Below, one piece after another: positions 2,168 through 59,821 of a stretch of DNA of 64,000 nt. The notes under the pieces were generated by a model. The model ran no database searches and was not told where the DNA came from. It saw only the letters and a program-made list of their open reading frames with translations. Numbering within the stretch: position 1 is the first letter of the stretch; each line of letters starts with the position of its first letter. Source of the stretch: Azolla caroliniana (Eukaryota; Plantae; Polypodiophyta); the NCBI GenBank assembly GCA_043228905.1, contig JBHGNT010000008.1, forward strand, positions 21,390,001 through 21,454,000, read 5' to 3'. A program made the position numbers and the translations under genes.

Positions 2168-2984
2168 ACAAAATGCACCAGAATTCTTGAGGAGAAGAAG
2201 CAAGAAAGAATAAGGAGAAGAAAGAAAGAAAGAAAGAACGAGCATAGTAAGACTGAAAGAATGGATTTCGAGCTTGGTGTTGGTCCTGTTGCCTCCTCCT
2301 CAACCACGGAGTCTAATCCATTAACTGCAAATCAGCTAACAGAACTTGCATTCGGAAAGAATGATGAGGCCTTCTTCATTGTAGAGATTCATGAGGAACA
2401 AAAAGAAAAAGAGAGGGGCAGGTGACCAAATTTTAGAAACATAAGGGCATGACATGGAATTTTGAAAACTTAAGGGCAAAAAATACAATTTTAAAAAATT
2501 TGAGGGTAAAATTGACATGGAATACGCGGATTAATCTCCAGCAACAACTGAAGCATAGATCACTTGATGACAATCGAAAACAAAAATCACAGACTAAATG
2601 GGAATGGAGGTAAGTCGACAAAACAGAAAGAGAATACACAAGATATTAACGTGGAAAACCCTGAGAGGGAAAAACCACGGGAGTCCGCAGACTCCAAACT
2701 ATCACTCTGTAAAGTAATACAACATGGAGCATAGAGGCAACGACCTCTTTCTCACAATCTTCGCCTAGCGATGGTTACAACAGAGACACAATCTCTGTAT
2801 GTCGCTCTCTCTCTCTCTCTCTGTAGGTGTCGACCGTCGCTATCACCTACACCTCTTACGGCGTCGTGACGAGAGAGTACAAATGTGCTTCTACACTTAT
2901 ACCTAGCGCGCAAGACATCAATGCTCGGCTAAGTTTTTTCTGCCCTTTTTGACTTTTTCTTTCATTTATTCTTTGAATTACAAC

Positions 2985-3776
2985 ATGACTTCTCGACGAA
3001 ACCATAAGGAAACACACGACGAAATGATAAGTAAGGAAGAATTTTTAGATGTCCTTAACCGGTTAGTAAAATTTGAAAAATGGGCGAAAGAAATTGAAGC
3101 TGAAAAACAAAAAGATAAGGAAGAAAAAGAACTACTTTTTGCGGAAATAGCGAAACTTAAGGTAGATAATGTGAACCTCCGAAAACAAGTTAAGGACCTC
3201 GAGATATCTAGGGAAGATGGTGAAATATCTTCCCTAGAGGATATTAAGGACGAGATAAAAAAGGTTAAAGAAGAGGTTAAAAGTGATATGGAATTAGCTA
3301 AAACTGGGTGGGTTGATGTAGTAAAACGTAATATTAAAAAAGAACTAAAGGATGAAAACATTGTAAACACTACCCTCGAGGAAGAAAAAATGCGTCAAGC
3401 TCGACGCCTAAATGTACGAGTTACTGGGCTCAAGGAAGGGGCATCTCCGGATGAAGATGCACAAACATTAGGGAAAATGTTAGGGTACGAAGCCCTACCA
3501 ATCACTAAAACCTGGAGGGTAGGGCGTGACACAACTAGGAAAAGAGCTTTAGTCCTTCAGTTTAAGGACTCAGAATCTAGAATCGCCTTTTTTAAAAAGA
3601 GACCAATTCTTCGAGGCTTGGGCGGGGAGCCTATCTACCTCGATGAAGACTTGACCAAGATGCAAATTGAGCATCGTAAAACTTGTATGCCACGAGTCAT
3701 ACAAGCTCGTAAAGAGGGGCATCGTGCTTTCTACCGGGACGGACGTGTCATAATAAATGATCGTGCCGCCAATTGA
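2985..3776 (+). CDS. LINE ORF1 (coiled coil plus RRM/CTD-like domain), 263 aa
   Basis: First ATG at 2985; E/K-rich heptad region, then RRLNVRVTGLKE...RVGR...LVLQF...IYLDEDLT. Confidence 0.85.
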   Translation: MTSRRNHKETHDEMISKEEFLDVLNRLVKFEKWAKEIEAEKQKDKEEKELLFAEIAKLKVDNVNLRKQVKDLEISREDGEISSLEDIKDEIKKVKEEVKSDMELAKTGWVDVVKRNIKKELKDENIVNTTLEEEKMRQARRLNVRVTGLKEGASPDEDAQTLGKMLGYEALPITKTWRVGRDTTRKRALVLQFKDSESRIAFFKKRPILRGLGGEPIYLDEDLTKMQIEHRKTCMPRVIQARKEGHRAFYRDGRVIINDRAAN

Positions 3777-3782
3777 CGGCGT

Positions 3783-6700
3783 GTGGCCCATGTGACAGAT
3801 AATAAACTTAGGATCACTTTATGGAACTGTAACGGCGCACTTTGGACACATCCTGGCCGTCTAGAGGAGATTTTGAAAGTATCTGATATACTTTTTGTAG
3901 TAGAAACACATCAAAGCCCAAATCGAGGACTGCCACGAGTTGACGGTTTTCGTTGGGAATCTGTCTTTAGACAAACCTCACGTCGACACACTACTAGAGG
4001 GTCTGGGGGGGTTGCGATATTATTTCGGAAAGAGATAAATAATAGGATAGAAATACTAAAGTCAGACCCAGAAGCCCGTTTTATGTGGGTGAAAGTCCTC
4101 ACTAGTAAGGATCAGGTGATATTTATCGCAGTTTGTTACTTCCCCCCGAAAGGGTCCCGCTACAATATGGCTGGAGAGGCGAGTATAGTTGATGAAGGAA
4201 CGCCACATGGGCCTTCTCCATACGAACCTTTGTCGGATGACATAATCCGATATTCTTCTCAAGGGGAAGTCTTCCTGGTAGGAGATTTCAATGCGAGAAC
4301 CCAGTCCCGACAATGCACAATATTTCAGATGGATAGAAACCTAGAAATGGTGAATGTCGACCCTTTAGCCTTAGGCATAACACGTACATCGAAGGATCAA
4401 GGTGCGGATGCCACAAGCTTTGGCCATCATCTGCTTGAACTTGGAAGCCGACACCAGATGATCATATATAATGGCTTAGCCAAGTGGCCGGGCTCGGAGG
4501 AGCTCACATGTTTCCCACATGGAGGAGGGGAAAGCACCGTTGATTATCTAATAGGACGCCCTGAAGCTACCCACATGGTTAGCTCCTTCCGGGTGGCCCC
4601 ATGCCCCATTGGGGCAGACCATACCTTCCTATACTTTGAGCTAAAATGTGACACCTCCCACACCACCAACTCTAGTAAACCAACCCATCACACTATAATA
4701 CATTTCACGCATGAGCTCGCGGACATCTACTCTCGACATGTTCAAGCCCATCTTTCCTCGTTTGATTCTTCCTTGCCTTTAGAGAACCTCACTACAGAAC
4801 TCACACACATCCTTCACTCAGCCGCCACTAGTAGCTTCCCATACACGAAAGACTCCAATCATAGTAGAATAGGGTCTATGCCACAAAACAAGTGGTATGA
4901 CGAGGATTGTAGAGAGTTGTATAGACAACTTAAAGTATCGCGACTCAGTGGTACTATCTCCTTAGTACAGGCTCGCAAAGAGATGCGCAAGATGACACGT
5001 CGTAAAAGACGAGCTTGGGAAGCATCTCAATATTGGGAACTCTACCATATGCTCATGAGTAGGGATTGTGCCCTTGCATGGAAGAGACTACGGGAACCGA
5101 AACCACAAACACCCATCGAGGATCCCAATATTTGGCACACATATACCGAGAGACTCTACCATGTCCCGAACCAACCACCCATTCCAATGCCCTCCACACC
5201 TCGACCTACCATGGGGACACTTTTCACGACCTCTAGGGTCACGAAGGTCATAAAAAAATTACAACATAGGAAATCCATGGACCACACAGGATTGCGAGCC
5301 GAGCACATCATATATGCTCGAGAGTGCCTAGCTCCCCTTCTCACTCTAATCTTCAACCGCGCCCTCGCCGAGGGTTTTCCACCACAATGGGCCATGAACA
5401 CTGTGGCCCCTATACATAAAGGAGGGGACCCAATGGACCCAAATACATATAGGACCATTATGATAGGTCATACGCTTGCTAAACTATATGGTGCAGTAAT
5501 GGAAGCGGAGCTCAGTGATTATATGGAAACATTAAGTCTTCGAGCACCTGAGCAGGCTGGCTTTAGACGAGCCTTCTCCACTATTGACCACATCTTCACA
5601 CTTAGGTGCTTAATTGACCAAACAAAGGCTCGTAAGAAGAAACTATATTGTTGCTTTGTGGACTTTCGCAAAGCCTTTGATACAGTTCCTAGGGAGAGGT
5701 TGTTTGATAGACTTAAGAGCTTGGAGATACCAAATGACATGATTTGGGCCATTTATGCCCTATATGAGCAAGTCTATGGGCGCGTAAGATGCCCAGGTGG
5801 CCTATCCGATTGTTTCACTAGCACCATTGGTGTAAAACAGGGTTGCCCCCTATCACCGACTCTTTTTGGGATCTACATTGATGAGATCACTGATTTTATT
5901 GCTCGTAAGGGAGGCAAAGGAGTGGCTATTGGGGATACGCAAGTTAGTCTCTTACTCTACGCAGACGACATTGTCTTGCTCTCGGAGTCGGAACACGACC
6001 TACAAAAGCATCTTAATGCCCTAGATGACTTTTGTACACAACGAGGACTGGTAGTGAATCTAGCGAAAACTAAAGTCCTTATCTTTCATACATCGTCCAG
6101 ACTTAGGAGTAAATGTCACCTCATCCTCTCTCATAAACTAGTTGAGGTGGTGGGATCTTATGTATACTTGGGAGTCACTTTTAGTGCTCGCTCAGGTAAA
6201 TTCTCGATGACCCAGGCAGCCAAAGATAGGCTAACGAGAGGATATGCATCCCTCTCACTCTTAGAGAGACAATGCCACCAAGCATACTTTCAAGAGCCAC
6301 GGACTAAGGGATGGCTTTTCGACTCATTAGTGACCCCGTCCCTCATGTATGCATCAGTAGTATGGGCTCCAGGTCTACCATCTTTTATGTGGACGCAATT
6401 GGAGAGACCTTTAGTGGTGATGTTATCACGTCAACTCCGAAGCAAATCGACAGTACCACATGACATTATTAGAGCGGAGTTTAGCCTACCCCCGATGTTA
6501 GTAGAAGCACTCTTTCAAGTGGTAGCTTTTATTCATCGGATACATAGTCAACCACAAGATAGGATATCCCGTCGAGCCTTTGAGGCATCCCGATCCTTAC
6601 ATGTGTCTGGAGACACCAACTCTTGGTATAGCATTGTGGTGAGTTGGTTATTTGCAAATGGCATAGACATTAATAACCTACCTCCCCTTAAGTACAACCA

Positions 6701-7529
6701 TGGGACTGATCAAACTTTAATCTCTCGTGAAGATCGTAATAAAGTGATACGCCAAGAAATATGGCAAATCTACACTCGATACAAATGGATCACCCCACGA
6801 GAGCCACTCCCATCTAAAATGGTGTACTATAAGGAACACTTCTTGCACTTCTCTAAGTTAGGGTTTATTACACGACCAAGATACCTAGATACTTTCTTAT
6901 CAAATGCACTAAGGGTGGCCATTGGACAACTTAGGATATCATCTCACCAACTTGAGATTGAGAATGGTCGAGCTAATAGAGTCCCTAGAGAGGAAAGGCT
7001 ATGTAGGTTATGCCACATAGAGATAGAGGATGAGTATCACTTCACATGCAAGTGCCCAACTTATGCCGAGATACGGGCGGAATACCAAGACATACTAGGA
7101 CCCTCTCCCACCCTCTCCAAACTATTAGATACCCCGAGTGTAAAGAGACTAGGTAGGTATATCTTAGAGCTAAAACAACATAGGGAGGATAAATTACAAA
7201 GTGTTAATCATAACCCTTTTACTACTCATCAACATGTACCTAGTGTAATTTTTCAGGAACATGGGGAGACGATGAATGTGGATACACTTATGCCGCTCGG
7301 CCTCTCCCTTGAGGAAGCAGAAATACAAAGAGCAACCAAACGTCCTCGGATGTTGGGCTTCAACACAAGTCAACGTGGAGTAGAAAAGATTAAGAAGATA
7401 AGGGAACGTGAGCTACGTCGACTCGAAGCTATGGTTGGGGTACCTCTTACATGGGGACCACGGGCCACATCCACATCATGGCAACCCTTTGACCCCCCGC
7501 TTCTCTTCGAGAGACTTGGATGGAAATGA
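3783..7529 (+). CDS. LINE ORF2: AP endonuclease, reverse transcriptase and Cys/His C-terminal domain (no N-terminal ATG)
   Basis: APE motifs WNCNG, VETH, GDFNA, TVDY, ADH; RT motifs QAGFR, VDFRKAFD, GVKQGCPLSP, YADD; C-terminal LRISSHQLEIENGR...CRLC...EDEYHF..CP. Confidence 0.92.
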   Translation: MAHVTDNKLRITLWNCNGALWTHPGRLEEILKVSDILFVVETHQSPNRGLPRVDGFRWESVFRQTSRRHTTRGSGGVAILFRKEINNRIEILKSDPEARFMWVKVLTSKDQVIFIAVCYFPPKGSRYNMAGEASIVDEGTPHGPSPYEPLSDDIIRYSSQGEVFLVGDFNARTQSRQCTIFQMDRNLEMVNVDPLALGITRTSKDQGADATSFGHHLLELGSRHQMIIYNGLAKWPGSEELTCFPHGGGESTVDYLIGRPEATHMVSSFRVAPCPIGADHTFLYFELKCDTSHTTNSSKPTHHTIIHFTHELADIYSRHVQAHLSSFDSSLPLENLTTELTHILHSAATSSFPYTKDSNHSRIGSMPQNKWYDEDCRELYRQLKVSRLSGTISLVQARKEMRKMTRRKRRAWEASQYWELYHMLMSRDCALAWKRLREPKPQTPIEDPNIWHTYTERLYHVPNQPPIPMPSTPRPTMGTLFTTSRVTKVIKKLQHRKSMDHTGLRAEHIIYARECLAPLLTLIFNRALAEGFPPQWAMNTVAPIHKGGDPMDPNTYRTIMIGHTLAKLYGAVMEAELSDYMETLSLRAPEQAGFRRAFSTIDHIFTLRCLIDQTKARKKKLYCCFVDFRKAFDTVPRERLFDRLKSLEIPNDMIWAIYALYEQVYGRVRCPGGLSDCFTSTIGVKQGCPLSPTLFGIYIDEITDFIARKGGKGVAIGDTQVSLLLYADDIVLLSESEHDLQKHLNALDDFCTQRGLVVNLAKTKVLIFHTSSRLRSKCHLILSHKLVEVVGSYVYLGVTFSARSGKFSMTQAAKDRLTRGYASLSLLERQCHQAYFQEPRTKGWLFDSLVTPSLMYASVVWAPGLPSFMWTQLERPLVVMLSRQLRSKSTVPHDIIRAEFSLPPMLVEALFQVVAFIHRIHSQPQDRISRRAFEASRSLHVSGDTNSWYSIVVSWLFANGIDINNLPPLKYNHGTDQTLISREDRNKVIRQEIWQIYTRYKWITPREPLPSKMVYYKEHFLHFSKLGFITRPRYLDTFLSNALRVAIGQLRISSHQLEIENGRANRVPREERLCRLCHIEIEDEYHFTCKCPTYAEIRAEYQDILGPSPTLSKLLDTPSVKRLGRYILELKQHREDKLQSVNHNPFTTHQHVPSVIFQEHGETMNVDTLMPLGLSLEEAEIQRATKRPRMLGFNTSQRGVEKIKKIRERELRRLEAMVGVPLTWGPRATSTSWQPFDPPLLFERLGWK

Positions 7530-7748
7530 AATTAGGCCTAGTATAGAATCATTCTCATTGTAGAACATGTTTTTTTATATAGAACATGTTTGTTGTTTTC
7601 TTAGAACTATTTAGCTTAAACCCTATTTTATCTTATTTTTATTTTTACTTTCGATGAATGGGTAAATATCCCATTTTTGTTGTACACCTTTTGTCTCATG
7701 GGCCAATTTTGGCCTTAGAAGACGTTAATATATCTTTCTTTCTTTCTT

Positions 7749-7779
<31 letters not shown>

Positions 7780-8596
7780 TACGCATTGTACAGAGGTTAC
7801 ACCAATAACTCTATCCTCATCACTATTAAGTTTGCCCTAGGTCATATTTATACTAATATGACTTTTGGGCTATTTACAAATATAGCCCCAGTGGCCTCTC
7901 TAGAACATATTTACATATATGTCCCTTCCATCCGATGAGAGGTTCTCACCGGGCCTGCAACATCCGGTTCTCACCGGGTCTTCCGTTGCCAGCCACTCCA
8001 CATCCGGATTCGGCCTCGGCCGAGTTGCTCATCAACACTTTTCTTCTCACTTCCCATCCAGAGGGACCTGTTTCCTAACAAAAATTTAGAATTTAAAAAA
8101 CGAAGGGGGTACAACATAAAATTTTGAAAACACAACTCACATGATGAAAGAAAGAATACACATACACACAACGCGATCTTATGACCCATGCCGCAGTGGG
8201 CGAGCCGATTAGTGTGTGATCCAATCGAGAGATGTGTTGACCGAACGAGAAGGTTCGAGTCAAGCAAGCTCCAATTGAAATTATCAATCGTAGACATATG
8301 ATCCGGTCGAGGGATTTCCGACCGTTGAGACAACCGATGGAGTTCCGATCGCTAAGAGTTGCCATGGCGAGTGGGTTGATTTTGCAATGCACTATCCCAC
8401 ATGTGTGCCATGTGTTACCCATAGGAGTTGTACAGGGAGGTATAAGGGTGGAACACTATAAAGTGGTTGTTGTGTATGTGTAATGTATATGAGTGTGTCA
8501 GGATAAATATGTGTATGAACACATGCACAATTATGTGCATGTGTACAAGAATGTAATGGTCTTTTTGTATTAGTCATATTAGTAACCGTTACATTA

Positions 8597-18354: not shown

Positions 18355-21300
18355 TATTAGGAAATAGGTCCCTCCGGATGGGAAGTGAAAAGAACAGAGA
18401 TGATGAGCAAACTCGGCCAAGGCCGGAACCAGATGTGGAGTACCCGGCTACGGAAAACCCGGTGAGAACCGGATGACGTGTGCCCGGCAAGCACCAGATG
18501 ATGCAGGCCCCGTGAGGAGTGCTCACCGGATGAAGGGACATATTCGTAAATATGTTTCTGAGAGTCCATCGAGGCTATATTTGTAAATAGCCAAAAAGTC
18601 ATATTAGTATAAATATGACTTAGGGCAAACTTAGTACTGTTGTTGTTATCATTCTTGTTGGTGCAAGATTAGAGCGTGTAACTGTGTACAGAGAGAGTGA
18701 GAGAGAGGGAGAGGTCATTGCCTCTGTTGTAACCACCGCCTGTGGCGAAGATAGCAAGCTCGAGGTCGTTGCTTCAGTGCTTTACTATTGTACATTCTGA
18801 TATAGTGATAGTTTGCAGTCTGTGGGCTGCCATGGTTTTTCCCTAGTTTGGGTTTTCCAAGTTAACATCCTGTGTACTCTTCTCTTCACTGTGTCGTGCG
18901 TTCATTACCCGTTTTCTGTGTTTTATTCTAGGCTCAGTTGTGGCCGAGCGTTGTTCATCGGGAGCGTGTGTTCTTATCAAAGTGGTATCAGAGCGAAACG
19001 ACACAAAAAATGGACGAATCGTTGGGAGGCATGTTCAAGCTCACCGGCTCCAACTATTCCGTGTGGAAGTCGAAGATGAGGGACATGCTCGTGGTTAAAG
19101 ATCTTTGGTTGCCGGTTCAGTTCGGGGACAAGAGACCGGACAAAATCGACGCCACGATATGGGAGGTGATGCACATGAAGACAACGGCTTACATACGGTG
19201 CTTCATCGACATGAGTCTATACAACAACTTCAATGAAGAGAGCAAGGCTCATGAGCTTTGGGAGAAGATCAGCATTATGTTTCAAAACAAAAATGTTGTT
19301 AATCATGTTTCGGTATTTCGGAAGCTAGTAAGACTCTGATACCAAGATGGCTCCAGCATAGCGGAGCACATGAATGCCTTCCAGGGGCTGATCCACTAGG
19401 CAACATCATTGGAAGTTCCTCTCGCCGATGAGGTACTAGCGCTACTCCTGCTCGGTTCCCTCCCAGATAGCTGGGAGACGTTGGTTGTCACTTTGGGCAA
19501 CGCCGGGCCGGAAGGGAAACGGTTATCCCTAGCAAGAATGAAGTTGAGCTTGCTAGATGAGGAGGCGCGTCGGAAAGATAAGGATACGAGCTCTGACTCC
19601 AAAGCGCTCCTTACCGAATCGGAACGCGGAAGACAAAGGAACCGTAGCCCCCAGAACCGGGAAAAGTCGGGGACACGGTCAAAGTCAAGGGGGAGGCCTA
19701 CTTGCTTCTATTGCGGCAAGCCGGGACACTTCCAAACGAACTGTCAGCACTTCCGAAAAGACAAGGAAACCGACGGTACCGATTCGAAGCGGACACCGGA
19801 CCGGAACGGTAAAGACCGGAGGGGGCCGGACCGGAAGTGAACGACGGCAATCACGGCAAGTGAAGAAGAGTTGATGCTCATCACCGAGGAGAGTGAGCTA
19901 AACCTTGCCGGCGACGAGATGACCTGGGTGGTCGACTCCGGAGCGTCGTTCCACCTTACCCCAGACCGGAAATGCTTCTCATCCTACTCGGCCGGTGATC
20001 ACGGCTGTGTCCGGATGGGGAATGAAGGTACATGCCGAATTGTCGGCATAGGAGACGTGTGGTTGACAACACCAACCAGATGCAAGCTGCTACTGAAGGA
20101 TGTCCGACACGTTCTGGAGGTTCGTCTGAACCTAATATCAGCCAGTCGGCTAGATGATGAGGGCTACATGGGTAGCATCCGGAACGATGTTATGAAGTTT
20201 AGCAAAGGAAGCCTGATTGTGGCTCGGGCCCGGAAAGTAAACACGTTGTACCTGATGAATGCCCGGTTATGCTCGGAAGAAGTGAACATGGCTTCTGACA
20301 CTGCCAGTGAGGTGTGGCACAAGAGGCTGTGTCACATGAGCGAGAAGGGGATGAAGAGGCTTGCAAACGACAACCTCATTCTAGTGAAGAACGTGCACTT
20401 AGAAAAGTGCACTGATTGTCTGGCCGGTAAACAAAACCGGACCTCCTTCTGATCGAGGCCACCGATGAGACGTAATGCACCACTGGAGTTGGTGCATACT
20501 GATGTATGCCAAGTGGACACGAAGTCACATGCCGGATCGCAGTACTTCGTGACATTCATAAATGACCACAGCCGGAAGTTGTGGGCCACACCGTTGAAGA
20601 CGAAGGATCAGGTGCTATCCATCTTCAAAGAGCTCCACGCGAGAGTGGAAAGAGAAACCAGTTGGAAGCTGAAGGCGGTTCGAACAGATAACGGAGGTGA
20701 ATACCGGGGGCAGTTTGAGGAGTATTATCGCTCGAAGGGAATCCGGCTCGAATTTACCGTGCCGAAGACGCCGGAACTAAACGGGTTGGCCGAGAGGATG
20801 AACCGGACCATAATGGAGAGGGTCCGGAGTATGTTGGCGCGTGCAAAATTACCCAAGACGTTTTGGGCTGAGGCGCTGTCGACAGCGACGTATGTGATAA
20901 ACAAATCACCCTCAGTGCCCTTGGATGGAGACACACCGCAGCAGGTGTGGACCGGTAAGGAAGTGTCCTACCGGTATCTGAAGGTGTTCGAGTGTCTCGC
21001 GTACGTGCATGATTCTAAGGACCAGAGAGGAAAGTTGGATCCAAAGACCCGTCCATGCATATTCCTCGGATACAGCGATGATGAGTTCGGCTACCGAGTG
21101 TGGGATCCGGTTGACAAGAAGGCTTTCCAGAGTCGAGATATTATCTTCATGGAGGACAAGACTCTTGCCGACCATTAGTTGGAGAAGAAGATAATGAACT
21201 CCGATGAGATTCGGACACACCCGGCTATGAGTCGGTTGACACTCGAGGAACCAGTTGGTTACGGTGAGAATACCGAACCGGTAGAAGAAGAAGTAGAGGA

Positions 21301-38643: not shown

Positions 38644-41600
38644 TCAATGTGGCCTCGTACGAGTCGGCTCTTGGGGCCTACACCGAAAAGAGGGTGGCAG
38701 GTGAATAGGAAACAACCAACGTGGGGGCTGGTAGTTCCACCTCGGGCCACTCCCGCCTTGCATCACCATAGGTGTGTTCCGCCATTTCTGCCAAAAGCGC
38801 AAACGGGCAGTGGTCACGTCGTTGGAGTGGCTGCAGATCTCTTCTAGTTGCCCTCGTAGGCAGCTGATAAGCGCGAACCATATGTCCATGATCACTTCCT
38901 CCGGGGGGCGTACCGTACCTTGGAAGACCTTGAGGCAACGCGCTTTCCATATATACCACAAGGTGAAACCTGCGATCAACATCCAGATTTCCGGAAACCT
39001 AGGGGATGCGGGCTGCAAGCCTCTTTCAAAACGGATCTTGACGATTTTGCCTCTCGTGCATACATAGCACCAACTATCCGCATTGACGGCGTCCGTCCAC
39101 CCTTCGACCGAGTGATCAATCCATGCCGCAGCGCTCCACGAGGCTGTTCCTTCAACGTCACATGCCACAAGGAGGCGAGTCACTCTATCCCATATCTTTT
39201 GAGCTTGAGGGCAATCCCACAAACAATGTCTCAGAGACTCATTAGGTAGAGAGCACAGTGGGCAGCCTAACGGGCCGCCCCGTTTATCTAACCATTCGCC
39301 AACGGGCACCACATTATGACCGATCTGCCACCAAAAGAGCTTGATCTTTTCAGGCATGTGGAGACGCCAAAGACCCTTCCAAAAGGCAATGAGCGCCTCA
39401 TCGGGGATGCCCAATGTTCGCCAGCCGTTGCGAAGGGGGCCGCCTCGCTGCAGTTGCAAAGTCCGACCCAATTTAGTGGTGTAATCGAAGAAGTGGTGGA
39501 GTCTATCGTCATGTTTCCATCTGAAATCCCCGGGGTCCCAATCCAGATCGACAAGGGGCCGGCAACCGTATACCCTTAACCTCCAATGGGGTTCCACCTT
39601 AGCAACATCCGGGTCTGTCTTCCAGATGTTATCAATCTGTGCCACCACTCGGATTGGGTGCCAAGAGCCGCTGCTCTGGCTGTCCCCAAAAACTGTATCA
39701 CTCCCCGATCCGCTCATGCCCTTTAGCGCCTTGACCATTCCAGCCTCGTCAAAGAGACCGAACCATGCATGTTCTCTCGCCACCCCCATCGGAACCCTGT
39801 CAACTGCCTCAGCTATCAGTCTCCGCATTTTCGTAGCTCCCTTGAGGGGAGGGAAAAGGACCTCTTGGGCTCTTCCTGAATCAGCCATGCGTCTCCAATC
39901 GTCTATAGATAGGAGGCCTGTTTGTGCCAACTTTCCCCATGCTAGGCCCTTAAGTTGCCCTAGCATCGCGTTGTCATTCGTTCGCACATGAGGATTCCAG
40001 AATAGTGGCTGTCTAGTCCATTCGGTCAATGTTTCCGGGGTGTGCTTGACCAAATGTTGTCGTATATGGCACCATGCCCGCAAGATGGAGTTCGTGACCC
40101 TATCCTCCGGATGGCAAGCCAGCCTGGGTGGGACTCCACTCGTGCAGCACCGATTCAAGGAGTCGGGCCAAGGCCTACCATACTTGGGAGTCCCTACTTG
40201 CAGCCTGTTGCGAAGAAGTACCTTCCAGCACCCCTTACCTGGCAGGAGGCAGCGAACCACCATTTTAGCCAGCAATGCACGACTCTGCATTAAGGGGTCT
40301 ATGAGGCCAAGCCCCCCTTTGGCCCGCGGTTGCGTTAACCAACACCATGAGACTCTGGCGGCAGCCCGTGGGTTGTCCTTACCTGACCATATAAACCCCC
40401 GAATGGCAGCCTTAATCGCGTGCAAACCTGCAGGGTCCATAATCCAGCATGAGACTGAGTGCCACATGGTAGCGAGCAGCACTTGGTTCGCCACAAGGAC
40501 CCTACCAGCGAAGGACAATTTTGATCTACTCCACTGGTTCAGCTTCTTACTTATTTTGGCTTGTACGTGGGCCAATTGAGCTCCCTTGGGGATTGACCTC
40601 CCCATCGTAAATCCAAGGTACTTGAAAGTCGTCCCACTAGGGACCCACGTAAAATCGGCATGGGGTTGCCATCTTGGTGTCTCCTGTTCGCTGAACCATA
40701 GACCTTGGGTTTTATTCCAATTGATCTTGGCACCAGCCGCCTGACAAAAGTCCTCGACAAGATGTTCAGCCCGCTGTAAATTCTCCTCATCACCTTGCAA
40801 GAAAAGAACCGTATCGTCGGCATATTCAGATAACAGCAAATCTTCAGTCGCATTGGGGATGGGCAATCCCCGCAACCCGCTAGTTGGTGCTTGTAAGTAG
40901 GCGGAGAAAGCCTCGGTTATAAAGAGATAGAGATATGGGGCTAGGGGACAGCCTTGCCTCACTGAGCGTTGTAGTTGGAAGGCGGGTCCCCTAGATCCAG
41001 CCATCAGCACGCTACTCGTAGCTGTCCGATAGAGTGCAGAAGTGCAATTCCTCCATTTTTGAGGTAGGCCCAAAGCTCTCATCACATTTTCCAAGAAGGG
41101 CCATAACACCCTATCGTAGGCCTTCTCAAAGTCTAGCATCAGAATAGCCGAGCTCGATACGGAGCGACCGGCCAATGCCATAGCTTCCCAAAGAAGCAAC
41201 ACATTATCAAAGATACACCTGTTCTTGACAAACCCAGTTTGATTGTCATGTATGATGTCCGGTAAGAAGCTTGCTAATCGCTGAGCAAGGACTTTAGCGA
41301 GTATCTTGTATGTCGTGTTAAGGATCGTGATTGGACGCCATTGGCGCAACTCTAGGCTTCGCTCTTGGGATTTGGGGATGAGATATATCATCCCCTCAGC
41401 CAGACCAATCGGCATCTTTCCTGAGGACCAAATCTCTTGGAACCCGGCTTCCAAGGACGGGATAACACATTCCCAATGAATCTCGAAGAAATCTCGTGAG
41501 AGACCATCGGGACCGGGGCATGCACCCCTTCGCAATCCCCTAAGTGCCTCCGAGAGCTCTAAACGAGAGATGGGACTATCGAGCACAACTTCCATCTCTT

Positions 41601-42957
41601 GGGTTACCTTGAGGTGAATGCAAGACATCACTCGATCAGCCAGCTCCGAGTTTTGCCGCACATGCGTAGGTGCGAGGAGGTCACGATAGTATTGTGTTGC
41701 CATTTCCAGAACCTCAGTCTTGTCCTCCGTTATTGAGCCGTCTGGTTTTCGCAGCCCGTGTATACGTCCACCACCACCCTTGGGTGCCTTGTAGTGAAAG
41801 AAATGTCGGTTGACCTTGTCGTCTTTTCTAGCCCACCATGCTGCGTTTCTTCGAAACAGCATTCGGTTCTTCTCCAAAGTCCTTTCATGTACCTTCATCT
41901 TTGCTTCCTCTAGTTTAGCTCTAGACCATTTGCAACCAGGGTCTACCTGTAACAGCCGTTGCGCTGCCGCAACGGCCTTCCTTAATTTTGTTTCAATGGC
42001 TCTAACCTGTTGGAGGGCGCGCTTGGTCTCTTGTTGTAAAAAGGAGGACGAGCGGGCCAATTTTTTCTGCAGATCTTCGCTGGCTGATTTACTGCCCATG
42101 GTGTCCTGCCATATACTCTGTAAACCGGCCTTCACCTCTTCACTCTTCATGATCTTTATGGGGATCTTTACATTGAGACTGCCCTTGCTATCGTTGGGTG
42201 GGTTAAGGTCTAGTCTCACCGGCTGATGATCTGAAAAGGTAAGGCCTGCCAAGATAGCAAAGGAGCCCCCGAGCTCTTCGAGGGATGAGCTGATGTATAT
42301 GCGGTCTAGCCGTGCAAGACTACCGCCCCTAGCATTCCCGTCGGCTCTAGAAAAGTGCAGCGAATGTGAGCTTCGCCTAAGGGAAGAGCCCCATGTATCC
42401 TTCACCCCGATTTTGCCAATTAGGAAAGCCCATGAATCTAGCTCCGCACCATAAATAGGCCTCTGGGTCCCTCCTTTCCTATCTCCCATGTGTTCAGTCA
42501 TGTTGAAATCACCTACCATTACCCAAGCCTCGACATTAGGTAATGTTGTCGCGAGCATCCTCCAAAAGATTGCTCTCTCGGGGGCTGAGTTAGGGGCATA
42601 AATGTTTAGCACCCCAATCTGTAGGCGATTCCATTTCAGAAGCACGTATAAGGCCCGACCCTCCACCAGCGTGCCAGATGATGTTACTTCGTATCGGGCC
42701 TTATCGCTGATCGAGATGCAGACCCCTCCTCTTCGGTGGAGGTCACCCTGCGCAGCCGACCACCATGTGGTCCACCCACCCGACAAGGGGTTTACTAAGC
42801 TCTGAGTTCGCTCTTGCGAGAGGTGGTGTTCCTGCAAAAGCAATATGTCAATATGGCCCCCTATATTAAGGGGATTCAACTCCTCCTGAAGTCTTCTACA
42901 CTCTTGGTGTTGTCGGCCTCCACCAAGGCCCTGTACATTCCACGTTAGGATCCTCAT
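38644..42957 (-). CDS. L1 ORF2: AP endonuclease, RT and zf-RVT (1437 aa)
   Basis: TWNVQG, LQEHH, IYAP, GDFN, RLDRIY, SDH; LDFEKAYD, RQGCPLAP, YADD; CPLC...HCLWDC. Confidence 0.95.
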   Translation of the reverse strand: MRILTWNVQGLGGGRQHQECRRLQEELNPLNIGGHIDILLLQEHHLSQERTQSLVNPLSGGWTTWWSAAQGDLHRRGGVCISISDKARYEVTSSGTLVEGRALYVLLKWNRLQIGVLNIYAPNSAPERAIFWRMLATTLPNVEAWVMVGDFNMTEHMGDRKGGTQRPIYGAELDSWAFLIGKIGVKDTWGSSLRRSSHSLHFSRADGNARGGSLARLDRIYISSSLEELGGSFAILAGLTFSDHQPVRLDLNPPNDSKGSLNVKIPIKIMKSEEVKAGLQSIWQDTMGSKSASEDLQKKLARSSSFLQQETKRALQQVRAIETKLRKAVAAAQRLLQVDPGCKWSRAKLEEAKMKVHERTLEKNRMLFRRNAAWWARKDDKVNRHFFHYKAPKGGGGRIHGLRKPDGSITEDKTEVLEMATQYYRDLLAPTHVRQNSELADRVMSCIHLKVTQEMEVVLDSPISRLELSEALRGLRRGACPGPDGLSRDFFEIHWECVIPSLEAGFQEIWSSGKMPIGLAEGMIYLIPKSQERSLELRQWRPITILNTTYKILAKVLAQRLASFLPDIIHDNQTGFVKNRCIFDNVLLLWEAMALAGRSVSSSAILMLDFEKAYDRVLWPFLENVMRALGLPQKWRNCTSALYRTATSSVLMAGSRGPAFQLQRSVRQGCPLAPYLYLFITEAFSAYLQAPTSGLRGLPIPNATEDLLLSEYADDTVLFLQGDEENLQRAEHLVEDFCQAAGAKINWNKTQGLWFSEQETPRWQPHADFTWVPSGTTFKYLGFTMGRSIPKGAQLAHVQAKISKKLNQWSRSKLSFAGRVLVANQVLLATMWHSVSCWIMDPAGLHAIKAAIRGFIWSGKDNPRAAARVSWCWLTQPRAKGGLGLIDPLMQSRALLAKMVVRCLLPGKGCWKVLLRNRLQVGTPKYGRPWPDSLNRCCTSGVPPRLACHPEDRVTNSILRAWCHIRQHLVKHTPETLTEWTRQPLFWNPHVRTNDNAMLGQLKGLAWGKLAQTGLLSIDDWRRMADSGRAQEVLFPPLKGATKMRRLIAEAVDRVPMGVAREHAWFGLFDEAGMVKALKGMSGSGSDTVFGDSQSSGSWHPIRVVAQIDNIWKTDPDVAKVEPHWRLRVYGCRPLVDLDWDPGDFRWKHDDRLHHFFDYTTKLGRTLQLQRGGPLRNGWRTLGIPDEALIAFWKGLWRLHMPEKIKLFWWQIGHNVVPVGEWLDKRGGPLGCPLCSLPNESLRHCLWDCPQAQKIWDRVTRLLVACDVEGTASWSAAAWIDHSVEGWTDAVNADSWCYVCTRGKIVKIRFERGLQPASPRFPEIWMLIAGFTLWYIWKARCLKVFQGTVRPPEEVIMDIWFALISCLRGQLEEICSHSNDVTTARLRFWQKWRNTPMVMQGGSGPRWNYQPPRWLFPIHLPPSFRCRPQEPTRTRPH

Positions 42958-44423
42958 CCGAAAACGGTGACGTTGGCGCCCATGTTCGGGCCGATCTCCA
43001 TGTCATGGGGCAAACTAACACCTGTTTCGGGGGGTATGGTCTCCACTGCAGGCTGCAAATCCCCTACAAGATTCTCAGCCGGTCGTTCTCGACCCGCTTC
43101 AAATAGATCCCGCGATACATTTGTGCTCCGAAGCGGTGGCACAACTTGCACCCCTCTATCTAACAGAGTCGTCGCCAAACTAGGTGTTGGTCTTCCTATC
43201 TTACCCTTTTCTTTGTCCTTGAGCTTGCCCGTCCGGATCCACGATTTCACTAATCTGAGGCCACTACCACATTCCCGCTCCACCGGGAGGGGGGGCTGTG
43301 CCAGCTTCTCTTCCGGGGTGGGCGGTACAAGTTGGGGTTGCATCTCCATCGGGGTGGAGAACACGAGTTCGGGCTCCCGCGGGGGAAGGCGTGAGGAGTC
43401 GCACGGGGATAGCATTGCTGCCAGCGCTGCTGGGTCGCCATCCCCTAACCCTTGAAGAAGTGTAAATCTGTTGGTAGCTCTCACCTGTAGGTCGGGTGCC
43501 TTGGCACTCCCGGAGAGGATCTTTACTCGTTTCAAGGGTTGCTCGTCCACGCTTGCTGGTGACAAGGTGGCAGGACTTCTTTCAAGGGGGTGGTCATGAA
43601 AGAGGGCGGGAGAGGAGGCACCTAGGCCTCCAAGTTTCCCCTTCTTCTTAACGGGTAGCCAAGGAGCTTCTTCACCCTTGGATGTCCCGACTTTGCCCGA
43701 GGGTCGTGGTCCCGAGCTTCCCTTTCCAATCTTACGAGGACACTCCTTAGCTAGGTGTCCTGTCTGTTTGCAAATGAAACACTGCCCCGGGAGTCCCTCA
43801 AAAACCACTTTTACCACTGTGAGGCCTAACTCCTCAGAGTAGAGTCTAATCCTTGATGGAAGTCCATGGAGGGAAGGCACCAAGATACGCAACTTGGGCA
43901 CCTCTGCGACTGTGTCTGCCATTGACGCTTTTTGAGGGCATATCATTCCTACTTGTTCGCCAAAAAGAGGGAGCAGATGGTACAAATGTGGAGGGAGGCC
44001 AGGAAATGTTGCGGTGATCACCCTAGGGTTGTTGAGTTTCCGTAACTCTTCGATCGGATTGAACCCTGGTGACCATGGTTGGAGCAACACCTTGCCGTAC
44101 TTCAGTTCGAGTACCTTGAGCTCGACCAATGGCTGCGCCAGCGAGTCATTACCTAATTCAATGTGGAAGAAGTTTTTCCCTAAACCCCTGACACTCTTGA
44201 TTACCGGCATGTTCTCCAACACAGCCACCTGAAACATGTCCCGAACCATGCCCCGACTTGGTCTACCTGCCAGAAACCTACATACGAAGGAGGTACGCCG
44301 TAGGCGTTCGATTTCTTCCGCTAAGACACGGTTAGCCTCGGGGGACAGGGTAATGGCGAGATCTGATCCACCTTCTTCATCGAGCAAATTGGACGCTGGT
44401 GGAAGCTCGATTCCTCCCATCAT
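42954..44423 (-). CDS. L1 ORF1 (DUF4283-like RRM plus CCHC knuckle), 489 aa
   Basis: LGKNFFHIEL, LLQPWSPGF and CFICKQTGHLAKEC, followed by a disordered tail. Confidence 0.9.
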   Translation of the reverse strand: MMGGIELPPASNLLDEEGGSDLAITLSPEANRVLAEEIERLRRTSFVCRFLAGRPSRGMVRDMFQVAVLENMPVIKSVRGLGKNFFHIELGNDSLAQPLVELKVLELKYGKVLLQPWSPGFNPIEELRKLNNPRVITATFPGLPPHLYHLLPLFGEQVGMICPQKASMADTVAEVPKLRILVPSLHGLPSRIRLYSEELGLTVVKVVFEGLPGQCFICKQTGHLAKECPRKIGKGSSGPRPSGKVGTSKGEEAPWLPVKKKGKLGGLGASSPALFHDHPLERSPATLSPASVDEQPLKRVKILSGSAKAPDLQVRATNRFTLLQGLGDGDPAALAAMLSPCDSSRLPPREPELVFSTPMEMQPQLVPPTPEEKLAQPPLPVERECGSGLRLVKSWIRTGKLKDKEKGKIGRPTPSLATTLLDRGVQVVPPLRSTNVSRDLFEAGRERPAENLVGDLQPAVETIPPETGVSLPHDMEIGPNMGANVTVFG

Positions 44424-44826
44424 AGCGAGTTATGTGTCTTGCGAGCCTAGGTTGTATGTGTTGTTCTTCCCTTCCCCCTTTGTTTTGTGTTTTTTTTAGT
44501 GTGTTACTTTGCGTTTTCTGGTTGGGGGAGGGAGGGAGGATTGTGTGTGAGAGTACCTGGACAGCAATTGGCGTTGTGCTCCTCCTCTTACTCTGTTGGA
44601 CAGCGCGCGTGTTCCTCAGTGTGCACCTACTCCTGCTCCTGCACGCCTTTTCCTGCTGCTCCCACTCCGCGCTCTGCTGCGTTTGCTCCCGCCAACGCTC
44701 TGCTGCTTATTACCTGCAGTTCTCCAGTGTGACGGCTTGGACAGCAGTTGGCGCCTCTGGCTCTGTTGGGTAGCGCGCGCGTTCCTCAGCGTGCACCCGC
44801 TCCTGCTCCTTCTTTCATAGCTATGG

Positions 44827-50815: not shown

Positions 50816-51618
50816 AGAGGATTCGAACCTTGAACCATTTATTCCTCCAATGGAAAAGGTCAAACACCCAAAATACATACATAGACCAAACCAAAAAGGA
50901 AGAAAGGACCAAATACATACATAAGAGAGAGAAACACAGAGAGACAGAGAGAGAGAGCGTTGAACAATCAGAAACAGGGGAGGCAAGAGTAGTAGAAAAC
51001 AGAAGGAGAAACAGAGCAGAGAGAAAAGCACAACAAAACGCGCTTCTTCCTTAAATCATCTCTCTCTCTCTCTCTCTCTCTCTGTGTAAGTAACCCATTA
51101 TGTACTTCTGTTGATCTGAAAAAGAGAAAACACAGGCAAAAAAACACCATAAACCCTAAAAACAGACAAAACAAAACAGACAGAGAAATAGATAGATAGT
51201 TAGATAGAGAGAGATAGAGAGAGAAAGCCATTAGAAGGAAGAAGAAGAAAAAGTCCCCATACATACCCTTTCTTCCTTCCCCTGTATTCTTGCTTCTCTC
51301 AGGCTATACTACTACTAGTATATTACCACGTCCTCTCCACTTCTAAAATTGTCTCATCTCTCTGTGTCTCTCTGTCTCTTCCATAACTTCTTTCCTTTTC
51401 CCCTTCACTCCCCTGTTTCTCCTAGTCTGCTACCTTACTCTGTTTCCTTCCTCCCCTGTTTCTCCTCCTTGTTGATTATTCCCTTCCCCCCCTCACCTTC
51501 ATTTTTGGGTTGATTCCTCCCTAATTGTGGTCCATTTCTGTGCCCCCCCCCCCCCCCCTCCCCTGTCCAAAGATTTGTGTCTCCTTTTTGGGCCCCCGCC
51601 TCTTCCAATTTCCCACCT

Positions 51619-54600
51619 ATGGCTTCTTCGATTCCTCCTCCCCGAGGAGGGGGAGGGGGAGGGGGAGCCGGGAGCCGATCGTTTCGAAGCCAATCCTCGG
51701 ACAACAGCCCCATCCCCGAGGGCAGTTCCGCGAACGCGTTCTACCGCCGGATGGCTCGGGCCGATTCCTCCGACATGGACGCCAGCAGTGAGATCGGATC
51801 TGTCAACGGAGGCTACACTGTCGTCATCCCTCCCACCCCCGACAACAACCCCACCACCACCACCACCACCACCACCACCGAAAACCATGAGCCCGACCAG
51901 AAATTGGTGTCCAATAGCATCTTCACCGGTGGTTATAACAGCGTAATTCGAAGCCATCAGCTCGACAAAATGACCGATGGGGTAGCCCTGGACGACAATT
52001 CACACTTGGGCTTGGGCGGTGGCATCGGCCACACTTGTATGATGGATGGTTGCGACGCCCGAGCCATGCGGAATGAGCGAGGCGAAGAAATAAACCCATG
52101 CCAATGTAACTTCAAGATATGCAGAGATTGCTATATCGATGCAGTCAAGGCAGGAGGGAAATGCCCCGGTTGTAAAGAGCTTTATAAGGACGATGATCAA
52201 GACCCGTATTCGCCTACTCCTCTCTCATTGCCAGCGCCACCGCCTATTCAGCCTTATCTTGACCGACGGCTCTCAGTGGTCAAGTCAAAGAAGCAAACAC
52301 ATCAGCTATCTACGACAACAATGAATAAGAGGTCGAATCAAGGTTATGATTTCGACCACACGAATTGGCTCTACGAGACCAAAGGTACCTATGGATTTGG
52401 AAATGCAGTGTGGCCCAAGGAAACCGACCCTTACACGGGTATCATGGCCGGAGGGCCTATCCCTGACTTCAAAGATCGAGCCCGCCGCCCACTCTCTCGG
52501 AAAATCAAGGTCCCAGGCGGCATCCTCAGCCCTTACAGGTATGCGTGCTTGTTATATATACACTTTGTCTTATTCTTGATCCATAGGCTATTGAATCTCA
52601 AATGGAGTTGAGCCTTTTGTTTATCTAATGATTGTGAATCACTACTCTAGACACACTTGATTTTGTTGTTGTCAGTGCTTAGGTTGTAGATCATCATCTA
52701 TAGGCTTGACCTTTATTCCTACACTTGATCATAGTGCCAATACACATAATCTTTGTTTCACTACCCATTGATCTTGTAGTACTTCATTTGTGTTCCCATT
52801 GATTTTTTTTATCATGGAAGATTCATTTGTGTTTCTTGTTACCACCCCTTTTGCAGGCTTCTTGTGGTGGTTAGATTTGTTGTTTTGATCCTCTTTTTGA
52901 TATGGAGAGTGTCACATCCAAACACGGGTGCTATGTGGCTATGGGGAATGTCGATTGTTTGTGAGATTTGGTTTGCATTCTCATGGATATTAGATCAGTT
53001 GCCAAAGCTTTGCCCCGTGAACAGAGCGACAGACTTAGCTGTGCTCAAGGATAAATTCGAGCAACCTAGTCCAGGGAATACAAACGGAAGATCAGATCTT
53101 CCAGGGCTCGATATCTTTGTATCAACAGCAGATCCTGAGAAAGAGCCCCCGCTGGTGACGGCCAATACTATCCTCTCGATTCTGGCCGCCGATTACCCCG
53201 TGGAAAAGCTGTCATGTTACCTTTCTGATGATGGTGGTGCATTGCTAACTTTCGAGGCTATGGCTGAAGCAGCAAGCTTTTCTAGGGTTTGGATACCTTT
53301 TTGTCGAAAACATAACATTGAGCCACGTAACCCCGAGTCTTACTTCAATCTCAAAGGTGATCCTACCAAGAATAAGGTGCGACCGGATTTTGTTAAGGAT
53401 CGCAGGAGGGTAAAGAGAGAATATGATGAATTCAAGGTGAGGATTAATGGGCTTCCGGAATCAATCCGAAGGAGGTCTGATGCTTATAATGTTCACGAGG
53501 AAGTGAAAGCGAAGAGAAATCAACATGAGAACGGGCTTGACTTAACCGAGCCTCTTAATGTCACCAAAGCTACATGGATGGCAGATGGTACTCATTGGCC
53601 AGGGTCATGGACAACACAAAGCACCGAGCACAAGAAGGGAGACCATGCCGGCATCATCCAGGTAAAAAGATTGGATTGGGCTCTTATGTTATAATAATAA
53701 AAGGCACTTATGTATTTTGGAACATTAATCAGTGAAAAATGAGGGGTAAATATTCCATTGAAAAACTAAACATGGCCAATAACATGTGCTTACTTTACTC
53801 TTCTATGAGTAAAAGAGCCATTCAGTTATATCCGTGCTTCTAATTTTGTCGGCATTTGCTGGTGTGTCAGGTCATGTTGTCTCCACCGAGGCCCGACCCT
53901 GTGTATGGTAATACGAATGAGGAGAATCTTATCGACACGACCGACGTTGATGTCCGCCTTCCGATGCTCGTCTATGTCTCCCGCGAGAAACGTCCGGGTT
54001 ACGACCACAACAAGAAGGCAGGAGCCATGAACTCGTTAGTGCGTAGCTCGGCCATAATGTCGAACGGACCGTTCATCCTTAACCTCGATTGTGACCATTA
54101 TGTGTATAACTCTCAGGCGTTCCGCGAGGGCATATGTTTCATGATGGACCGCGGAGGCGAGAACATTTGTTATGTGCAATTCCCTCAGAGATTCGAAGGT
54201 ATAGACCCAAGTGATCGCTACGCGAATCACAACACCGTTTTCTTCGATGGAAACATGAGAGCGTTGGATGGTTTGCAAGGTCCGATGTATGTTGGGACTG
54301 GATGTATGTTTAGGAGAATTTCCCTTTATGCGGTCGACCCACCTAGATACAAGGATCGGGGTAGCTTTTGCTCTCGCGTTTTCTGTTGTGGAGGGAGCAA
54401 GCGGAAGAAGCAAAGGCAAGTGCATTCGAACATGCAGCAGAAGAAGAAGCTCGATATCGACTCGGTGTCTGTGATGGAGGACGACGATGAGGATCAAGAG
54501 ATGCAGCTCGTGCCGAAGAAGTTTGGGGCATCGGGCACCTTCCTGATGTCGATACCGAAGGCCGAGTTTCAAGGCCGCCCGTTGGCGGACCACCCGGGCA

Positions 54601-55643
54601 TCAAATTTGGCAGGCCACCAGGTGCTCTTACCGAGCCTCGTGAGCCGTTGGACCCCGCCACCGTGGCTGAGGCCATAAGTGTAATCTCATGCTGGTATGA
54701 GGATAAGACGGAGTGGGGCCGTAGTGTCGGGTGGATCTACGGTTCCGTGACTGAGGATGTCGTGACTGGGTACCGCATGCATAACCGCGGTTGGCGCTCG
54801 GTGTATTGTGTGACCAAAAGGGATGCCTTCCGAGGCACGGCACCAATCAACTTGACGGACCGGCTCCAACAGGTGCTGCGATGGGCGACCGGATCGGTCG
54901 AAATCTTCTTCTCTCGCAACAATGGCCTCCTTGCCGGGACCCGCATGAAGCTGTTGCAACGTATCGCATACCTCAACGTAGGTATTTATCCCTTCACCTC
55001 CATTTTCCTCATGGTCTATTGCTTCTTGCCCGCGCTCTCCCTCTTTACCGACCAATTCATCGTCGCCACGCTCGACGTGTTCTTCCTCATCTATCTCCTC
55101 GTCATCACGCTCACCCTATGCATGCTTGCGCTCCTGGAGGTGAAATGGGCGGGCATCACGCTCGAAGAATGGTGGCGGAATGAGCAGTTTTGGGTTATCG
55201 GGGGCACGAGTGCTCATATTGTGGCCGTGCTTCAAGGCTTGCTCAAAGTCATAGCGGGGGTGGACATTTCCTTCACGTTGACCTCGAAATCGTCTGGCGA
55301 AGATGAGAACGATGAGTTTGCGGAGCTTTATGAGGTCAGGTGGACATTTCTTATGATACCCCCACTCACCATCATGATGGTTAACATGATTGCGATTGCC
55401 GTAGCTGTGGCGAGGACCATATATAGTAGTGATCCATCGTGGAGCAAGTTGCTAGGGGGTGTCTTCTTCAGTCTCTGGGTGCTAGCACATCTGTACCCCT
55501 TTGCAAAGGGTCTTATGGGACGAAGAGGAAGAGTGCCGACCATTATCTGGGTCTGGTCAGGCCTTATTTCCATCACCATCTCTCTCCTATGGGTTGCCAT
55601 TAGCAATCCGCAAAGTCAATTCTCGTCAAGCTTCTCGCTATGA
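51619..55643 (+). CDS. CSLD: Cellulose synthase-like D; exons 51619-52538, 52857-53661, 53871-55643; 1165 aa
   Basis: CSLD N-terminus ([24 protein letters not shown]-like Cys, [12 protein letters not shown]); GT2 motifs DDG, DCD, TED, QVLRW. Two GT-AG introns give 3498 nt in frame. Confidence 0.96.
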
Positions 55644-57163: not shown

Positions 57164-57235
57164 TGTGGCTGCTGGGATTCGAGCCCAGGTCTCCACGGCC
57201 ACAACGTGGAATTCTAACCACTAAACTACAGCCAC
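57164..57235 (-). tRNA. trnH-GUG: tRNA-His (GUG), cytosolic
   Basis: GTGGCTGTAGTTTAGTGGTTAGAATTCCACGTTGTGGCCGTGGAGACCTGGGCTCGAATCCCAGCAGCCACA folds as a cloverleaf; oligo-T terminator ~30 nt downstream. Confidence 0.97.
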
Positions 57236-59517: not shown

Positions 59518-59821
59518 GTCCGAGGAGAAATATCTTCTAGGATTACAACTTCTTATGCATACCTTTCATCAGATTTCCTCAACTTTTAGAGCAAAAGGAG
59601 CAATGGTGTGATCATTGATCTATCTCTCCAGGGTTGTTTTATAAAGAAACCAGACGATCATCCATCCATACCTGCGTTGAAGAAAGAGATCAAGTGATAG
59701 GGCTTGCCCATGAGTTGGATGTGATTCGGGGGAGCATCAGATTACGGTGCATATCTTGCATATTCCTGAGATCATCATCCATGGCCAGAGCTTAGCGAAA
59801 AGAGCAGAGTGGCAAAGGTCT

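Follow-up and report, generated by a model that had tools for sequence, protein, structure and literature searches.

A retrotransposon of Azolla caroliniana with a predicted readthrough junction and a candidate long-range pairing between its post-stop region and its 3′ tail

Introduction

How ORF2 of a long interspersed nuclear element (LINE) is translated, and how its product comes to prefer its own RNA, are long-standing open questions (PMC3894237). Stop-codon readthrough has been proposed from sequence for the Group 3 non-LTR (non-long terminal repeat) LINEs of Paramecium tetraurelia (Guerin et al. 2017, PMC5405496). Among viruses, the tombusvirus carnation Italian ringspot virus (CIRV) has a stop codon before its polymerase and a switch in which a proximal readthrough element (PRTE) pairs over ~3.5 kb with a distal one (DRTE) in the 3′-terminal replication structure (Cimino et al. 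2011, PMC3234231). The Virgaviridae share the conserved motif stop-CGx-xxx-xxG (Firth et al. 2011, PMC3159437). We analyzed a window of 64,000 nucleotides from Azolla caroliniana (assembly GCA_043228905.1, contig JBHGNT010000008.1, positions 21,390,001 to 21,454,000), in which a full-length LINE lies at 2823 to 7779; positions are those of the window, and features are on the forward strand unless stated otherwise. The element is an APE-type non-LTR retrotransposon whose ORF2 encodes an APE endonuclease and a reverse transcriptase (RT), preceded by an RNA-binding-type ORF1. Its ORF2 is probably made, with some room for doubt, as a 1,514-amino-acid ORF1-ORF2 fusion by occasional readthrough of UGA-CGG, regulated by a predicted pairing of an arm just after the stop with the 3′ tail.

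The LINE shares with CIRV an in-frame stop before the polymerase, a kilobase-scale pairing of the post-stop region with a 3′-terminal structure (3.9 kb here, at the sequence level), mutually exclusive terminal folds, and a proposed role in quality control and cis preference. It differs in being a nuclear retrotransposon, in a pairing of 13 of 14 bp that starts directly at +9 without a large local stem-loop, and in the UGA-CGG context of the window family; moreover, the CIRV switch was tested experimentally, whereas that of the LINE is predicted from sequence. Type II readthrough, as in alphaviruses and Virgaviridae (PMC3159437), is paralleled by UGA-CGG in 20 of the 34 junctions compared below, by xxG at the third codon whatever the amino acid, and by a predicted helix after an 8-nt spacer. 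The viral partners, however, lie within ~140 nt and those of the LINE ~420 nt and 3.9 kb downstream; the xxA of codon −1 is replaced by AAT in the window and is found in 10 of 34 junctions; and a sister clade has switched to UAG-G, the Type III context (PMC3159437). A covarying stem-loop closed within ~150 nt of the stop, another Type II feature, was not found (local z scores, 0.03 to 1.32), and the LINE therefore fits neither the Type II nor the tombusvirus-switch definition fully. Its stop context resembles that of Type II viral readthrough, and its architecture that of the tombusvirus switch.

Among retrotransposons, the Paramecium Group 3 elements likewise have ORF1 and ORF2 in one frame and short-repeat tails, but they belong to a ciliate clade and have a zinc-finger ORF1, and the excerpt used gives no stimulatory element for them (PMC5405496). 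A bicistronic LINE RNA with low ORF2 output is common to SART1, mammalian L1, and the present LINE, and a structure located 3′ of the junction is important in SART1 (PMC5972666, PMC3894237); the L1 ORF1p fold found by Foldseek for ORF1 is a further likeness to mammalian L1. Unlike SART1, none of the 34 junctions has a UAAUG-type stop-start overlap, and frame, stop context, and spacer coding are conserved in the LINE. Green-algal RTEX elements have microsatellite tails (PMC3472496, Table 1), as does the LINE, a likeness to RTEX (RTE-X) in the tail. RTE-X is named in PMC10294476, the excerpt of which makes no mention of readthrough. A literature search, conducted largely without subscription journals, turned up no retrotransposon for which a long-range readthrough element has been described. 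Readthrough in LINEs has already been proposed for Paramecium; what would be additional here is the predicted long-range readthrough element formed by arm and tail.

Results and discussion

The stop codon and the reading frame are conserved at the ORF1-ORF2 junction

ORF1 begins at the ATG at 2985 and ends with AAT-TGA (3771 to 3776). The frame resumes with CGG CGT GTG at 3777 and remains open for 1,250 codons to the TGA at 7527 to 7529, which gives the fusion length stated above. A metagenome scan yielded 44 loci, of which 33 were tallied together with the window as 34 junctions. Loci that do not span the junction (L015, L019, L025, L033, and L043), that are decayed or deleted there (L022, L024, L029, and L040), or that duplicate others (L032 and L038, duplicates of L031 and L037) were omitted. 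Many of the loci are not independent, having been taken from similar assemblies, and the argument rests on lineages.

A stop codon was kept at the position of the window's TGA in all 34 junctions, with a sense codon in none. The leaky context TGA-CGG (3774 to 3779 in the window) accounts for 20 junctions, TAA-GGG for 3, TAG followed by GGA, GGG, or GAA for 4, TAA-CGG for 1, and decayed-looking variants for the remaining 6. TGA-CGG is common to three diverged lineages (the window family, L017/L039, and L023), between which 4-fold degenerate sites are saturated, their identity being at chance (5/34 to 12/36); CGG makes up 0.2 to 0.9% of ORF2 codons. The TAG-G loci (L012:978, L020:849, and L027:254) form a single clade (support, 82/82) that is sister to the window family (89/90). 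This clade appears to have switched from TGA-CGG, and so in nature from a Type II to a Type III context, and to have lost the Met found elsewhere three codons before the Trp of the endonuclease WN motif, with the arm retained. Another, much more divergent group (L031:908, L037:4104, and L041:347) has TAA-GGG in frame and no ATG before the WN motif.

The ORF1 proteins end at a corresponding place. Among 118 ORF1-like proteins reaching the C-terminal end of the profile, 101 stop no more than 15 amino acids past it, and none belongs to an intact ORF1-ORF2 fused ORF. ORF1 relatives terminate 14 residues past the YRDG motif, and proteins at 36 to 98% identity, including gene models from Adiantum and Ceratopteris, share the terminal residue. 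Two proteins with ORF1-like and endonuclease parts (P0182 and P0186) were rejected as real fusions, since the N terminus of the endonuclease is missing and they look like gene-model splices.

Beyond the stop, ORF2 is in frame in 30 of the 32 junctions with a recognizable WN motif, and the out-of-frame junctions (L016 and L030) carry further frameshifts or stops. The WN Trp falls at codon 13, 14, 16, 20, or 21 after the stop; these five spacer lengths involve at least four indel events, all of them multiples of three, which is expected in ~1% of cases by chance. The initial annotation had raised programmed readthrough from the window's sequence and, as an alternative, a natural single-ORF element hit by one CGA-to-TGA mutation. 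Alignment across the junction supports the former, with TGA-CGG (20/34) and frame (30/32) conserved and neither a sense codon in most copies nor a variable frame; the stop in every junction refutes the latter.

Logan contigs from four runs were also compared with the window; their sequencing depth does not represent copy number. They point to a high-copy family in which, among the best 40 of 135 variants, common changes on either side of the stop lie mostly at the third positions of codons in a single frame, and none of these 40 is at 3768 to 3799. The run-wise variant listing covered 3780 to 3800 only, missing known variants at 3764, 3767, and 3815, and does not test the stop codon, for which reason the conservation of the stop rests on the loci. 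The junction stop is a family-wide feature and not a nonsense mutation of one copy.

An arm at a fixed distance from the stop, without a conserved local stem

The post-stop arm, the predicted proximal readthrough element, occupies 3785 to 3797 and starts at +9. The G at +9, which is the xxG of codon +3, is found in 33 of 34 junctions across nine amino acids, and no variant at ≥1% is listed for 3784 to 3795 in the four runs.

The initial annotation had placed the stimulator in a local stem (3783 to 3788 with 3855 to 3860, plus 3790 to 3794 with 3847 to 3851). That stem can be drawn, but folding was no better than in shuffled sequences in any of five downstream windows (z scores as given above). 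Conservation was also poor: all five pairs of helix 2 are present in only 2 of 18 sequences, helix 1 retains 4 of 6 pairs in L009 and 2 of 6 in L012, and no two-sided (covarying) change was seen in the aligned sequences. The ATG-TGA mini-ORF at 3790 to 3795 is indeed out of frame in the window, but it is absent from L009, L010, L012, L017, L020, L023, and L027. Stem and mini-ORF were accordingly rejected as conserved signals, given the missing fold excess and the seven loci without the mini-ORF. Rfam gave no match at E values up to 1 for 2700 to 7900. In a sliding test of synonymous change, underpowered with its 7 sequences, the lowest window was at 4548 to 4578 (codons 258 to 268; P = 0.027, uncorrected), which contains a 7-nt complement of the arm.

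The arm is complementary to the 3′ tail and to an internal site

The predicted distal element, at 7692 to 7705 in the 3′ untranslated region (UTR), can form 13 of 14 pairs with 3784 to 3797. It is the 5′ strand of a 3′-terminal hairpin (7693 to 7723) that is predicted in 4 of 4 tails, with z scores of −2.55 (window), −2.26 (L007), −1.62 (L023), and −2.07 (L039). Each 14-mer of the full-length element (~4,500) was scored against the last 60 nt of that element, the arm not being used as input. The top-ranked 14-mer was the one at +9 in three elements (the window, L007, and L023), and in L039 it took second place; the window is the discovery case and forms one lineage with L007. Between the window and L039, the arm-tail pairing has two compensatory changes, G-C to A-U and C-G to U-A. 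As a control, the +9 14-mer of a second LINE in the window ranked 1,989 of 5,127, and with decoy 60-nt windows in place of the tail, the arm came first in 0 of 31, 2 of 30, and 0 of 30 cases. Shuffled arms tested over the whole downstream sequence gave significance for 6 of 9 loci. The TAG-G loci come without tails of their own; tested against each of the three available tails, their arms ranked first, as did two of the three TAA-GGG arms against one tail, that of the L039 type. In the window, L007, and L039, the arm takes the hairpin-forming strand; since its partner is the 5′ strand of the hairpin, arm-tail duplex and hairpin would be mutually exclusive.

A second partner, a perfect 10-nt complement of the arm, lies at 4204 to 4213, at the end of an endonuclease insertion loop (residues 126 to 143) with pLDDT below 50. 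It is restricted to a subfamily: all 10 close copies examined have it, L009 with a compensatory change from U-A to A-U, while L020 and L027 have no strong equivalent. L012 has two separate internal complements of 10 to 11 bp, at +286 to +301 and +365 to +380 after the stop, that are not homologous to the partner in the window.

An ATG upstream of the endonuclease motif in most close copies

The initial annotation had argued for readthrough from the absence of an ATG before the endonuclease motifs. This holds for the window, where WNCNG and VETH precede the first in-frame ATG (4083). It does not hold for the family: 23 of 30 in-frame junctions have an ATG at the position of 3813 to 3815, before WNCNG, and with most close copies carrying it, the argument from a missing ATG fails for the family as a whole and AUG reinitiation becomes possible in most copies. 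The window has ATC there; in each of the four runs, G predominates at 3815 (73 to 96% of depth). The ATC variant is not unique, since identical contigs span the site in X2 (depth, 618) and X4.

The codon in question lies within the first β-strand of the endonuclease, ORF2 K10 to N17 (3807 to 3827; AlphaFold strand E10-17). The predicted strand begins three residues before the family Met and aligns with Ile8 to Asn14 of the human L1 endonuclease, such that the Met corresponds to Ile10 and the Leu two codons earlier to Ile8. The codon two upstream of the ATG encodes Leu or Ile in 29 of 30 junctions, spelled by seven different codons. No in-frame ATG precedes the WN motif in the TAG-G clade (L012, L020, and L027) or in the divergent TAA-GGG group. 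We argue from the structure model and the comparisons that the ATG at codon 13 would be an internal Met of the endonuclease; with its place inside predicted strand 1, the Leu or Ile upstream of it, and whole lineages lacking it, readthrough is still favored. At window position 3783 (codon +3), seven loci have ATG for GTG, a variant that reaches up to 15% of depth in one run; this puts an AUG 6 nt past the stop and keeps the G at +9.

A model for gated readthrough, and its rivals

The proposal of the initial annotation that the LINE makes a fusion by programmed readthrough is supported by the conserved stop, frame, CGG, and spacer coding pattern, but its stimulator is not the local stem. In the mechanism that we propose, most ribosomes would terminate at UGA, releasing ORF1p. 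Pairing of the arm would place a helix at the mRNA entry channel while the stop occupies the ribosomal A site, favoring decoding by a near-cognate tRNA; that the position of the arm is fixed relative to the stop, and not relative to the ATG, is consistent with an effect on ribosomes pausing at the stop codon. A ribosome that reads through would strip the arm-tail duplex and let the terminal hairpin refold, and the new RT could then bind the refolded hairpin in cis for target-primed reverse transcription. In the window subfamily, the internal partner at 4204 to 4213 could form a similar helix, and in most close copies the ATG at codon 13 may yield some ORF2p by reinitiation, although this ATG would be dispensable. 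The switch itself, in which the tail hairpin either pairs with the post-stop arm and licenses RT synthesis or refolds as the RT landing site, is a more tentative proposal than readthrough, one that we place slightly short of an even chance.

Several observations weigh against this explanation. The ATG three codons before the WN Trp, seen in 23 of 30 in-frame junctions, is kept in three diverged TGA-CGG lineages, and in seven loci codon 3 is another in-frame ATG. At the stop position, two short proteins (P0106 and P0146) carry a sense residue, although neither runs into an intact endonuclease. A dip in synonymous change over codons 1 to 9 (2 observed, 6.8 expected; P = 0.035) is only fourth among 388 windows and fails correction for multiple testing. 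The tail test covers only 4 tails from 3 lineages, and L023 is a weak case among them, since its arm, which is G-rich and pairs with the opposite hairpin strand, accounts for the 2 of 30 decoys that put the arm first. When shuffled arms were compared over the whole element, significance was not reached for L039, L023, or L027 (70, 93, and 75 of 150, respectively), and the arms of four decayed loci (L030, L037, L042, and L044) match no tail. Because of the internal partner, a helix at +9 would remain possible in a 3′-truncated RNA of the window subfamily, and the idea of a full-length checkpoint is weaker for it.

Much of the evidence on the ATG bears on reinitiation, in which ribosomes that terminate at UGA would resume 36 nt downstream, at the ATG or, in copies lacking it, at a non-AUG codon, and make a separate ORF2p while the duplex holds or positions the small subunit. 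The presence of the ATG in most in-frame junctions and in three diverged lineages fits this explanation, as do the structure downstream of the stop-start site in SART1 and the unconventional reinitiation of mammalian L1 (PMC5972666). Reinitiation, however, requires neither a conserved frame nor CGG nor a Leu or Ile upstream of the ATG, and the arm keeps its place at +9 from the stop while its distance to the ATG varies (19, 22, or 28 nt) or the ATG is missing. A start at this codon would also cut predicted strand 1, whereas the second LINE of the window, which has a stop-start design in contrast to the LINE described here, has its ORF2 ATG overlapping the ORF1 TGA (ATGA), five codons before the WN Trp. 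We consider reinitiation unlikely, though it is the rival to be taken most seriously. That the UGA-CGG or UAG-G context drives readthrough alone, the arm-tail pairing serving RNA folding, packaging, or masking of the tail until reverse transcription, seems distinctly improbable. The three nucleotides 3′ of the stop were reported sufficient for tobravirus readthrough (PMC3159437), and the tail hairpin is of the type that stringent LINEs need for reverse transcription (PMC3472496). Yet the arm is at +9 in every lineage, the position of the readthrough stimulators of murine leukemia virus (MuLV), alphaviruses, and Virgaviridae (PMC3159437), and another function would not tie the arm to the stop.

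Two further explanations would do away with the stop. Its removal in the RNA, by splicing or by U-to-C editing that turns all three stops into Arg or Gln codons, would also need the conserved frame, and U-to-C editing of stops occurs in fern organelles. The window, however, is nuclear DNA (with cellulose synthase, PPR, and WD40 genes), and such editing of stops is not known for transcripts encoded by nuclear DNA. Removal in the RNA would leave CGG and the +9 anchor unexplained, the duplex does not cover the stop, and an intron would have to take out the C-terminal strands of ORF1 or strand 1 of the endonuclease; we give this explanation very little credence. Least credible of all, to the point of being negligible, is the single-ORF element with one CGA-to-TGA mutation. 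CpG decay is common in the copies, with C-to-T and G-to-A changes dominating the best 40 of 135 variants, and the sense residues in P0106 and P0146 would fit; but the stop is of three kinds (TGA, TAG, and TAA) across all junctions, and ORF1 proteins spanning 36 to 98% identity end at one and the same residue.

If readthrough gated by the arm and tail is correct, the RNA of the LINE would itself encode a mechanism for cis preference and for checking that transcripts are full length, much as in tombusviruses, and the RT would be tethered inside an ORF1p trimer. Confirmation would mean that nuclear retrotransposons, like plant RNA viruses, can control readthrough over a long range and would imply a particle of fused ORF1p and ORF2p. 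The predicted design is compact and mutable (one stop, a 13-nt arm, and a terminal hairpin), and natural variation supplies compensatory variants and the switch from UGA-CGG to UAG-G. A reporter with the local sequence alone may give a false negative, as for CIRV, whose long-range interaction did not operate in a dual-luciferase setting (PMC3234231), and annotators should not count the junction stop as decay.

Proteins, insertion site, and neighborhood of the element

ORF1 (2985 to 3773; 263 amino acids) has no Pfam match and is predicted to comprise a coiled coil, an RRM, and a C-terminal domain (CTD) in the fold of human L1 ORF1p. An AlphaFold model of its C-terminal 158 residues (from 3300 on) had a pLDDT of 79.9, and the top Foldseek match of the model was 2ykp, the human L1 ORF1p trimer (E value, 6e-7). 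A PDB sequence search with the ORF1 profile gave weak coiled-coil matches only and an ESM Atlas search only unnamed eukaryotic clusters; the named relatives are gene models from two ferns, Adiantum nelumboides and Ceratopteris richardii (~45 to 55% identity). The ORF2 frame (3777 to 7529) encodes the APE endonuclease at amino acids 16 to 277 (PF03372; E value, 5.5e-11), with fold matches to the L1 endonuclease and the ExoIII family, and the RT at amino acids 546 to 801 (PF00078; E value, 1.8e-33). A C-terminal CCHC-type motif was identified by reading the translation, and we take it to resemble that of RTEX.

The LINE sits within the (CT)n microsatellite of an LTR-like repeat: its flanks (2631 to 2825 and 7756 to 8078) match consecutive parts of a repeat at 18357 to 18880, and (CT)n tracts lie on both sides (2805 to 2822 and 7754 to 7779). 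The simple-repeat tail, read from the sequence as (CTTT)5 followed by (CT)13, is at 7734 to 7779. With (CT)n in both flanks, a target-site duplication is indistinguishable from the target microsatellite, and the 5′ end of the LINE is approximate because any duplication would itself be (CT)n. The 3′ end of L007 is like that of the window LINE, and L023 ends in (TCATT)n and then (CT)n. Three of the four full-length copies, L039 being the exception, end in or beside (CT)n, which hints at a preference for CT-microsatellite targets. The 5′ UTR has two short upstream ORFs, at 2883 to 2906 (7 codons) and 2921 to 2932 (3 codons). No second copy of the family is present in the 64-kb window, and no relative of the LINE was found in scans of viral contigs (2) and genome contigs (2).

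The second LINE of the window, also intact, is on the reverse strand at 38644 to 44429; it has a zf-CCHC ORF1, an ORF2 with APE, RT, and zf-RVT domains, and a poly(A) tail. Remains of nested LTR retrotransposons, with RVT_2, SH3, and RT-RNase H domains and several LTR pairs, lie within 8600 to 36000. Host genes follow at 51514 to 63272, where ORFs for a RING domain, a cellulose synthase-like protein, PPR, and WD40 were found.

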